From a virus (taxonomy: Duplodnaviria; Heunggongvirae; Uroviricota; Caudoviricetes): a DNA stretch of 22,624 bases. Below are positions 3,001 to 6,000 of this stretch, one piece after another; position 1 is the first letter of the stretch, and each line of letters opens with the position of its first letter. Location: the IMG/VR virus record IMGVR_UViG_2521172589_000007. One strand, written 5' to 3'. A program made the position numbers.

Positions 3001-6000
3001 AATCTGCACGCTTTTCTTGGTATTGGTAAAATGTTTGCTCACTGGATCAAGGACAGGCTGGGTGAATATGGATTCGTTGAAAATCAAGATTTTGTGATTG
3101 CTTGCCAAAATTGGCAAGCAAAAGGTAGAGGCGGTCACAACCGCAAGGAATACCACCTCACCCTCGACACAGCCAAAGAGCTTGCGATGGTTGAACGTAA
3201 CGAAAAAGGCCGCCAGATACGCCGCTACTTCATCGAGTGCGAAAAGAAACTTCGCAACATTCAGCCAGTACAAGCAGAACCACAGCCGCAATTCACAGCC
3301 GAGGAAATCATCCTCCTTTGCTACATGCAGCTCTGGATGGAAAAAGCCCAACAACTCAGTAAACAGCTATACCCCGTCATGAGAGAACTGAACTCTGATT
3401 ACTATGGAAAGCTGTTTGATCTGGCCTACGAAACTCGTCATATAACCAACCGGACTCGCGACACATTGCTCCGCGAAGCAGCAAAACTTGATCCCGCCAA
3501 CTATACGGTGCACAGGGCCAGAAGTATGCTGGCGCAACTAAGAGCAAGACAATTTGAATTCTGAAACCAAAGGAGCTTCGGCTCCTTTTTTCATGCCTGA
3601 AGGAAAGGAAAATGGCAGATATCATCGACAATGCCGCTGAAATCGAAGAATTGCAGCGCAATCTCTCCCTGCAAAAATACAAATCCGATAGTAATGCCCC
3701 ATCTGCTACTCATTGTTGCGAGTGTGGCGATCCGATAGATGAGCGGCGACGCCAGGCTGTTCGCGGATGCCGAACTTGCGCCAGTTGCCAGCAGGATATT
3801 GAACTTATCAACAAACAGAGAGGTGTGAAGTGAGCATAGACACCACTATAACGATCGATACGGCCCTCAACACAGGTCTGGCGCTTCTTGGTTATTTTTA
3901 CATTATGTTCTGCGCCGGGCGGTGGCTATCGCTGTTGTTACTGAAAAAATGGAATAAATGCCGTAAGCAGGATCAACGCCAGAAGGCAATGAATGCGTTT
4001 TCCGAAGCCTTCGGGATTGACAGCATGGAGCCAGGAGGTCCAGCTCGCGTAATTAGCAGAGGTGACGTTGTAATTCTTGTATACCGGAGCGAAGAGAAAA
4101 ATGAGCGAGATTAACTATCAGGTACTGCGTGAAAAGGCAGAAAAAGCAACGCGTGGTGAGTGGTCGCTCGAATATGGAGAGAACCGATTTGATGGTGATG
4201 ATGCACTAATTCATCGCGAGGCTGCTGGATATATTCCCATTTGCAGAATTGAAGGAGCACATCCTGAAAGCGGTTTCGATGAAGATTTCCAAATGGAACA
4301 GCAGGCCAATGCTGAATTCATCGCCGCAGCCAATCCGGCTACCGTGCTGGCACTGCTGAATGAACGGGAAAGAAACCAGCAATACATCAAACGCCGCGAC
4401 CAGGAGAACGAGGAAATTGCTCTTACGGTTGGGAAGCTGCGTGTTGAGCTTGAGGAAGTAAAACAACACGCTGAAGAATTATCCGAAACCAAGGCTGTTC
4501 GTAACCAATGGCGGCCAGATATTTGCCCAATAACCGGACGTACATTTTTCATGTGGATTGAGCATCCAACATTGGGAAATGTGCCGACATGTGGTGGCCC
4601 ATTAGATAGTTACACCATTCCAACAAAGGACGGTGACGGTGAGTTTTCATGTGAGCGTTACGATCATGATTTTGGCGGTTGGGTAGAAAGCGAATGTCTT
4701 GGGTTATATCTGATTGATGATAGAGAACAATGCAGGGTCTACGAACTGGAGGAACGCGTTAAAGAGCTGGAAACGCGGGAAGTTCATTTGCCGACTCGCT
4801 ACGGCCTTCGATATGGACATCCGATAAATGATGATGAGCGCCACGTCATGATACCTAAAGAAAATGGCAGTTGGCTTTACCTGATTGACCTAGAACACGC
4901 ATTACGCGTCGCTGGCATTCGCATCAAAGGAGAGTGATATGGCATTAACACACCGCGAACTCTGTCAGATTGCGTACAAGTTCCTTAAGCGCAACGGGTT
5001 CAAGGTTTGTTTTCATGACCGCTTTATAGCTGTAACCAGTACCGGAGAACAGCCAGATGCTATGGGATTCAGAAATTCAGCATCATGCCTGATAGAGGCG
5101 AAGTGTTCTCGTGCTGACTTGTTAGCAGATAGAAAAAAGCGTTTTCGTAAAAATCCGTCTCTTGGAATGGGCGACTGGCGATTCTTTATTAGTGAGCCGG
5201 GAATTATTTCAATTGAGGATTTACCACCTGGCTGGGGATTACTTCACGTTGTTAACGGAAGAGTACGGAAAGTACATGGGTGGCCCAAGGGTAATTGCTG
5301 TTGGGGTAATCCTGACGATAAGCCATTTACTGGGAATAAGCAGGTTGAATGCGATTACATGTTATCTGCATTAAGGCGCATGGAGTTGAGAGGGCACCTT
5401 AATGAAATATATGACGGTGTGATTGTTAATAAGAAAGAAGGAAACGCGGCATGATCACTATTACCAAAGGGCGACTGCTGACAATCAAACAGTGGCGCGA
5501 AACATACGGACCTGGTAGCAACGTTGTACTGCCAGCAGAAGAAGCGGAAGAACTGGCACGAATTGCACTGGCATCGCTTGAGGCAGAGCCGGTGGCGTGG
5601 AAGGTAACCTTCACGCAAATTGACCGTGAATATAACACGTTCACTGGTATGTATCCTGACAAAGCAGAAGTCGAACGGTGGGTGCGGCTGCATAAAGCAT
5701 GTAATTTTCGGGCAGATATAACACCGCTTTATACCGCTCAGCCAGTGCCGGTAACTCCGGATGGTTGGATAAGCTGTAGTGCGCGAATGCCCGCTCAAGA
5801 TGATTGGATTTTAATTTATTCAAAGCACGGCGAGTATATGGCAGGACAGGTAAAAGGGGAATACGTGGAGTTGAGCGACGGCACTTTATCGTGGTTAGGG
5901 AATGCCTTGTTCTGGATGCCGCTACCAGAACCGCCGAAGGAGGTACGCCAATGACCTAGCCTGAAGCATTTGCAATTGTAGTGGCTGCCATTTCGATCGC

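Follow-up and report, generated by a model that had tools for sequence, protein, structure and literature searches.

Two proteins of the exo-xis region of phage lambda are well described. Orf73, a relative of the conjugative protein TraR, binds RNA polymerase (RNAP) and inhibits the promoters of ribosomal RNA (rRNA) and ribosomal-protein genes; it also makes the host grow more slowly and increases the burst size (PMC9239242). Ea22 has a pro-lysogenic phenotype, a solved C-terminal domain and known mosaic variants (PMC7093339, PMC10834534). Here we analyze a block of five genes related to this region, located at positions 3612-5954 (+ strand) of a 22,624-nucleotide stretch of viral DNA (IMG/VR record IMGVR_UViG_2521172589_000007, Caudoviricetes; hereafter the window). 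Four of the genes are members of known lambda-type families in a known arrangement, whereas the remaining one, gene 4, encodes by its structural model an uncharacterised, widespread nuclease-fold protein resembling MmcB, which in Caulobacter is an SOS-regulated endonuclease implicated in cross-link repair (PMC9578287). Otherwise the cassette is a typical mosaic accessory block.

The locus agrees with lambda orf73-ea22 in the length of Orf73, in the N-terminus, coiled coil and tail of Ea22, in gene order and in the tight coupling of the genes. It differs in that a DUF4752 gene is inserted between the orf73 and ea22 homologues and in that the C-terminal region of its Ea22 is not the lambda C-terminal domain. 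In the Shiga toxin (Stx) phage 933W, the same order of Ant, DksA-like zinc finger (L0141) and Ea22-like protein is found beside the attR core, L0141 being the second Orf73 copy of that phage (PMC8614690). The downstream genes differ, with a nuclease-fold and a DUF551 gene in our cassette and a hypothetical gene, hok/sok and a YgiW-family gene in 933W. In Shigella phage 75/02 Stx, the full set of five genes likewise lies next to attR.

We consider it likely that the five genes form a real and intact early accessory cassette at the b-region end of a prophage of Escherichia coli O104:H4, that they come from the lambda exo-xis/ea pool and that they include an Orf73 homologue and a putative replication/recombination nuclease. 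An earlier note on this DNA had proposed five translationally coupled genes here, and we find five uninterrupted open reading frames (ORFs) of 73, 94, 278, 171 and 167 amino acids (aa) at exactly these positions:

3612-3833, + strand: gene 1, TraR/DksA-family C4 zinc-finger protein, 73 aa (PF01258, phrog_54)
3830-4114, + strand: gene 2, DUF4752 protein, 94 aa, GTG start (PF15944, phrog_667)
4101-4937, + strand: gene 3, mosaic Ead/Ea22-like protein, 278 aa (PF13935)
4939-5454, + strand: gene 4, predicted PD-(D/E)xK nuclease-fold protein, 171 aa (phrog_9263, phrog_631; without Pfam family)
5451-5954, + strand: gene 5, EaA/DUF551 protein, 167 aa (PF04448)

The length of gene 3 is counted from the ATG at 4101, which is the start chosen by the Prokaryotic Genome Annotation Pipeline (PGAP); the mechanical ORF opens at a TTG at 4077. 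The coupling is borne out by the junctions, which are a GTGA overlap (3830-3833), a 14-nucleotide overlap (4101-4114), a one-nucleotide gap (4937/4939) and an ATGA overlap (5451-5454), and by a Shine-Dalgarno-like purine run ahead of all five starts.

Fold and active site of the gene 4 protein

Gene 4 matches phrog_9263 (E 2e-123) and phrog_631 (E 1e-94) and is without a match in Pfam, NCBIfam or PADLOC. Its relatives are numerous: 324 close ones in Enterobacterales, 3,204 cluster representatives (50% identity) at E≤1e-3 in an exhaustive profile search, and members in 641 phage records. A search of its sequence against PDB chains gave nothing significant and the family profile reached 3dnx at E 0.4 only, so that the link to MmcB needed structure. 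The AlphaFold model (predicted local distance difference test, pLDDT, 85; predicted template modelling score, pTM, 0.79) shows the α-β-β-β-α-β order of the PD-(D/E)xK core and is structurally closest to the MmcB-like protein 3DNX; in BFVD, it matches viral proteins named MmcB-like. The 3dnx protein (SPO1766) belongs to DUF1052, or PF06319, now called MmcB-like (PMC3424549).

The earlier note had suggested a small nuclease because of a PD-x11-EAK motif. The motif is present, but counted on the translation its spacing is x12 (P39-D40-x12-E53-A54-K55), and in the model it maps to the active site of the nuclease fold, with D40 just before β2 (41-45), E53 in β3 (48-54) and K55 directly after it. 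The outcome that the note had named as refuting, a motif lying off the active site of a nuclease fold, was checked for and did not occur. Candidate catalytic residues are D/E27, E37, D40, E53 and K55, to which a conserved S57-R58-x-D60-F-x-x-D64-x-x-K67 segment is added. The family profile aligns D40...E53-x-K55-x-S-R-x-D-F-x-x-D with the same motif in 3dnx, and D40, E53 and K55 also align to the D and E-x-K of PF06319 proteins. In a set of 129 sequences, comprising 128 family representatives at 34-62% identity, each of these three residues is kept in 128, and E37, D60, D64, K67 and R81 in 127 to 129. The model thus shows a PD-(D/E)xK nuclease fold closest to 3DNX, with the predicted catalytic D...ExK in canonical positions and almost invariant.

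The family nevertheless differs from MmcB in some respects. MmcB proteins are encoded by SOS-regulated chromosomal genes, mostly of alphaproteobacteria, whereas the gene 4 family is phage-borne and found in Enterobacterales and Vibrio phages. It also has conserved GMGDWRF and GWGLL motifs of its own, unlike MmcB-like/DUF1052 proteins.

One metagenomic relative of 428 aa (P0136), a single instance, has a TniB-like AAA+ ATPase domain fused to the nuclease domain, a pairing that recalls the TnsC/TnsA combination of Tn7.

The near-invariance of the putative active site also bears on the very improbable explanation that the fold is catalytically dead and that gene 4 encodes a DNA-binding regulator or a scaffold partner of Ea22. 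Such a partnership would fit the rare fusions of an Ea22 N-terminus to the nuclease domain (P0091, P0104, P0009) and the Ea22-like coiled-coil gene that precedes the nuclease gene in prophages of E. coli and Klebsiella and in P7. The conservation pattern, however, is typical of an active enzyme. Furthermore, the association with Ea22, although frequent in E. coli, Klebsiella and P7, is not universal: the upstream partner is a different one in prophages of Serratia (a DPPH-motif protein, possibly a methyltransferase) and Morganella, and the copies in lytic phages have no Ea22 neighbour. These differences in the neighbouring gene also led us to reject a firm functional coupling of Ea22 and the nuclease.

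Gene neighbourhoods and proposed role of gene 4

In four virulent phages, namely Vibrio phage vB_VpS_C2, Salmonella phage heyday (a Kuttervirus) and Vibrio phages Bakedbeans and D507, the gene 4 homologue lies directly upstream of a DNA primase gene. In vB_VpS_C2 it comes after genes for a polymerase and two helicases, and the start of the primase gene overlaps with its end. All four neighbouring primases were assigned to phrog_47 ('DNA primase') and have no Pfam match. In Morganella, Serratia and Klebsiella prophages, the homologue is located between the replication genes and NinB/NinG/Q.

Among the close relatives in E. coli, the trio of Ea22, nuclease and DUF551 genes dominates. For most Stx2a phages and phage Ss-VASD, it is the canonical exo-xis region that harbours Ea22, the gene 4 homologue, DUF551 and Ant. 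In P7, Upf89.0 is 100% identical to the gene 4 protein and lies in an operon with a C1 operator; the protein is likewise 100% identical in Ss-VASD and Stx2a phages, and RefSeq annotates a 171-aa protein for 75/02 Stx. A locus search in IMG/VR returned 80 near-identical E. coli prophage copies, with Ea22-nuclease-DUF551 synteny in most and no added diversity.

With gene context as the main evidence, besides the model, gene 4 most likely encodes an active DNA endonuclease serving phage replication or recombination. It would be a Mg2+-dependent enzyme acting on branched or damaged DNA in these processes, and not a defence or anti-defence effector.

The earlier note had placed the block among the b-region or early-left blocks, which is correct, and had described such blocks as hotspots for host-takeover and anti-defence functions. 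In line with this view, gene 4 itself could be an effector that degrades host DNA, the nucleic acid of a defence system or a signal molecule. It does sit in a non-essential, highly mosaic block beside a presumed RNAP-reprogramming protein, its neighbours in other prophages include genes for Lar-like restriction alleviation, Dam methylase and dATP/dGTP pyrophosphohydrolase, and its predicted catalytic residues are conserved. We still regard this reading as unlikely. The context of the nuclease favours replication/recombination, given that in virulent phages it keeps its place directly upstream of primase within replication modules; structurally it is closest to a family of DNA-repair nucleases; and no PADLOC-DB model matches any of the seven proteins in or beside the cassette at E≤0.1. 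To our knowledge, which is not exhaustive, no anti-defence protein has this fold and motif pattern, and this also counts against an effector.

That gene 4 encodes a Holliday-junction or branch resolvase, taking the functional place of VRR-NUC, Hjc or RusA in the replication modules of phages, seems distinctly unlikely to us. The prophage already encodes RusA, and relatives of gene 4 co-occur with NinG. There is no family-level sequence match to VRR-NUC/Hjc-type nucleases. For the archaeal Hjc resolvase (PF01870), the best E-value among 33 relatives was 0.018, which is below threshold, and gene 4 did not match at all. The protein is also larger than these nucleases and set apart from them by a conserved C-terminal helix (E137, R146, R147). 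Its best structural match is MmcB-like, for which the proposed substrate is cross-link damage, not junctions (PMC9578287).

Genes 1, 2, 3 and 5

The gene 1 protein is a close homologue of lambda Orf73 (TraR family) in which the residues relevant to function are kept. The two are 71% identical over 73 of 73 residues without a gap, and the zinc finger that the earlier note had called TraR-like scores above threshold for PF01258 (zf-dskA_traR; 35.3 bits, cut-off 24.9, E 1e-8) and matches phrog_54 (E 1e-24). In the NCBIfam model of the phage/conjugal plasmid TraR subfamily, TIGR02419, it scores 55.2 bits against a cut-off of 59.7, so that naming by this model fails while the Pfam and Orf73 matches hold. 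The C4 zinc finger (C35-x-x-C38, C56-x-x-C59) aligns to the F TraR chains 5w1s and 6n57, the DxxDxA tip is present as D3-I-I-D6-N-A8, the arginine pair is found in E44-R-R-R47, and the N-terminal motif region equals that of lambda Orf73 except for N7/S7. With F-plasmid TraR and E. coli DksA, gene 1 has in common the C4 zinc finger, the DxxDxA helix tip, the RR pair and a length of about 73 aa (PMC9239242, PMC6970531); it differs in being phage-encoded and in matching F TraR only remotely in sequence (E 6e-4).

The DxxDxA motif, which reaches the region of the RNAP active site, and the pair equivalent to R48/R49 are important for TraR/Orf73 function, and RNAP binding and inhibition of rRNA promoters have been shown for lambda Orf73 and four other homologues (PMC9239242). 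Lambda Orf73, unlike TraR, reportedly did not increase transcription from F-element promoters in vitro (PMC9239242). By its sequence, the gene 1 protein would bind in the secondary channel of RNAP, lower the activity of rRNA and ribosomal-protein promoters and divert host resources to the phage.

Gene 2, a 'membrane protein' in the earlier note, is here named DUF4752: it covers positions 1-84 of the 84 in PF15944 (133.6 bits, cut-off 27, E 3e-39). A Kyte-Doolittle scan gives one hydrophobic, predicted membrane helix at about residues 12-38, and a basic stretch comes after it.

Gene 3 is a mosaic Ea22. It matches PF13935 (Ead_Ea22; 97.8 bits, cut-off 27, E 1e-27) and lambda Ea22 (BLASTP E 5e-26), with which it shares the N-terminus, the coiled-coil core, including a nearly identical segment at residues 82-118, and the last 13 residues (...AGIRIKGE). 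An insertion of 36 residues and a different C-terminal region distinguish it from lambda Ea22. The lambda-type C-terminal domain, a dimer solved by nuclear magnetic resonance, is absent, the alignment past the coiled coil being weak and gapped. The variant recurs at full length in phage phiSTEC1589-Stx1c (98.6%), and identity to P7 Upf88.3 is 76%. By analogy to lambda, it probably acts as a tetrameric coiled-coil scaffold favouring lysogeny.

Gene 5 carries a DUF551 domain at residues 105-163 (PF04448; 35.9 bits, cut-off 22, E 1e-8). Alignment of its relatives, which number in the thousands and of which one is named EaA, shows a variable N-terminus, a conserved middle domain (about residues 36-100) and the C-terminal DUF551, in which conserved WISCSxRMP and WMPLPEPP flanks enclose a hypervariable core. 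YfdS (CPS-53) and P22 EaA are alike in the C-terminal DUF551 and differ in the N-terminal and middle regions. DUF551 is a portable domain that also forms the C-terminal domain of Ea22 variant V2 (PMC10834534, PMC4776307). The model of gene 5 has weak structural matches to ferredoxin-like and Tudor/SH3-like folds, and PDB sequence searches with genes 3 and 5 gave chance-level matches only. The earlier description of Ea22 and DUF551 proteins as functionally unassigned holds for DUF551 but not wholly for Ea22, with its known phenotype and solved domain.

The prophage

The window is 100% identical in sequence to chromosomes of E. coli O104:H4, and 3612-5954 lies at the end next to attR (the 'b-region' end) of a lambdoid prophage of 933W type that has integrated into ynfG. 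In strain 2011C-3493 (NC_018658.1), the window opens in ynfF, followed by truncated ynfG and the prophage. The annotated order on the + strand is Ant, TraR/DksA-family protein, DUF4752, Ea22-like, 'hypothetical' and DUF551, after which a hypothetical gene, an LPD38 giant protein and tail genes run in the opposite direction. The features around the cassette are:

2408-2490, + strand: 5' part of the host gene ynfG (4Fe-4S subunit), truncated at the attachment junction of the prophage; in PGAP a truncated 4Fe-4S gene after ynfF
2929-3564, + strand: phage antirepressor Ant, upstream of the cassette, with AntA N-domain and P22_AR_C (PF08346, E 6e-26; PF10548, E 9e-9; phrog_377, E 3e-96)
~3562-3593, + strand: intrinsic terminator separating ant from the cassette, with a GC-rich stem of 8 bp, a UUCG loop and a U tract, from RNA folding
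5956-6231, - strand: convergent 91-aa ORF at the end of the late/tail operon (phrog_3658, E 2e-63; annotated in NC_018658.1)
6355-14706, - strand: ORF of a 2783-aa 'polyvalent' protein, the last large late-operon gene, annotated LPD38 (LPD5 in 933W and 75/02)

The two - strand ORFs bear out the earlier claim that the cassette converges with the late operon. The polyvalent protein contains an HExxH metalloprotease-like motif (ALAHEWFHSLD).

At the opposite end of the prophage, the remainder of ynfG adjoins the integrase gene, and this end also carries exo, bet, gam, a CI/LexA-type repressor gene, cro, cII, replication genes, nin genes, Q, and genes for lysis, terminase, portal and an N4-gp56-type capsid protein. 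This is the gene content of a 933W-type lambdoid phage. As int, like exo, bet and gam, runs toward the attachment site (att), the cassette of the circular phage lies just past int-attP in the direction of pL transcription, which is the position of the ea genes in the lambda b-region and agrees with the placement given in the earlier note.

The cassette holds the sole orf73-like, ea22-like, DUF4752 and nuclease genes of the O104:H4 prophage; there is no second copy elsewhere in it, and a canonical exo-xis copy is absent. The pR operon contains a second, diverged DUF551 paralogue (36% identity; 20922-21506 of the prophage sequence L002) and an ORF6N-domain protein (24095-24766 of L002), whose C-terminal part is 62% identical to the C-terminal half of Ant.

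A 17-pair hairpin (2564-2603, + strand) lies about 75-110 nucleotides into the prophage, counted from the att junction. It consists of ATGCAAAGCTTTGT in two direct copies, with the palindromic core CAAAGCTTTG, and is followed by CTCACTTTTG; its position resembles that of lambda sib/tI.

Expression of the cassette

The strong terminator reported ahead of the cassette is real. Its hairpin, AAAGGAGC-UUCG-GCUCCUUU followed by a U run, has a folding energy of -14.2 kcal/mol (z = -2.73) and ends 19 nucleotides upstream of the gene 1 start; a consensus terminator scanner overlooked it, and it was found by reading and folding the sequence. With a simple scanner, no sigma-70-like promoter site was detected on the + strand between 2718 and 5954, the scanner's site being TTGACA-18-CATACT at 2689-2718, in the ant promoter region. 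As the cassette is preceded by a terminator and lacks its own promoter, its transcription must come from upstream.

Expression would thus occur solely via read-through of the ant terminator. One source of transcripts could be the ant promoter region with the site at 2689-2718. Another could be pL transcripts that, when antiterminated, run on through int-attP in a genome made circular by excision or infection, as for the b-region genes of lambda. Host ynfF and the ynfG stub (window 1-2929) are co-directional with ant and the cassette, and in principle this end of the prophage could be reached by transcription from the host ynfEFGH operon.

Inspection by eye revealed no convincing LexA box upstream of ant. 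About 40 nucleotides 5' of the ant start codon, and downstream of the 2689-2718 site, positions 2803-2887 (+ strand) give a full-length match to Rfam RF02221 (sRNA-Xcc1; 49.9 bits, gathering score 53, E 3e-8), which may be a structured 5' leader of ant.

At the other end of the cassette, one nucleotide separates the stop codon of the DUF551 gene from that of the convergent 91-aa gene (5952-5958). Folding shows no terminator hairpin there, and transcription from either side would continue into the opposite gene as antisense RNA.

Evidence against an intact cassette with a proposed replication nuclease

Several findings weigh against the reading that we favour. Adjacency to primase was seen in four of the five non-lambdoid phage genomes inspected and is absent in Vibrio phage V-YDF132; of the four, three are phages of roughly 144-157 kilobases that may be related. 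A mosaic accessory position would be just as typical of a host-takeover or anti-defence gene. The comparison by hhalign to 20 bona fide PF06319/MmcB sequences, reached through plasmid records, gave an E-value of 9e-5 over 121 collinear columns, with a probability of only 59% and from shallow alignments. Neither gene 4 nor any of 33 relatives gave a PF06319 hit in a search at E≤10, and the best-scoring relative, the distant P0260, stayed below the Pfam threshold (17.8 bits, cut-off 22); we therefore treat gene 4 as a related family.

For expression, PHROGs revealed no recognisable N-type antiterminator in the early-left region of the prophage, so that read-through from pL can only be inferred; the xis-like gene is annotated as partial. 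For both reasons, pL read-through across attP may not operate in the O104:H4 prophage. Lastly, in the PGAP annotation of NC_018658.1 the Ea22-like gene is split into two partial pseudogenes and gene 4 carries the label 'frameshifted' (window 4101-5454; 21302-22318 of L001 in the NC_018658.1 sequence).

These flags, together with the partial xis-like gene, a truncated 'regulator' and the lack of an own promoter, would fit a decaying remnant that lies silent behind the terminator in a possibly defective prophage. We hold this to be highly improbable, since all five ORFs are uninterrupted, with coupled starts and Shine-Dalgarno sequences, since other phages hold the identical gene 4 protein and the full-length Ea22 variant described above, and since Ea22 proteins are known mosaics (PMC10834534). 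We rejected the pseudogene and frameshift calls because the ORFs are intact and full-length copies exist in other phages; the reference annotation is thereby corrected for two intact genes.

Implications

The predicted placement of gene 4 in the PD-(D/E)xK/MmcB-like group gives a 'hypothetical protein' of hundreds of phages, among them P7, the Ackermannviridae genus Kuttervirus, Vibrio phages and Stx phages, defined candidate catalytic residues. The cassette is carried by a prophage of the 2011 outbreak lineage of E. coli O104:H4 and by many Shiga-toxin phages, and exo-xis/ea genes influence the lysis-lysogeny decision and prophage induction, which control toxin release.

A broader proposal, which we put forward as speculative and on present evidence doubtful, is that gene 4 represents a large, unnamed, phage-specific group related to MmcB (~3,200 clusters, no Pfam or NCBIfam model) that works at the replication fork with the phage primase, and that in lambdoid phages it is one of several interchangeable effectors (nuclease, DUF551, lambda C-terminal domain) recruited by a tetrameric Ea22 scaffold. 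If this were true, the pro-lysogenic effect of Ea22 and the exo-xis region would act through DNA processing.

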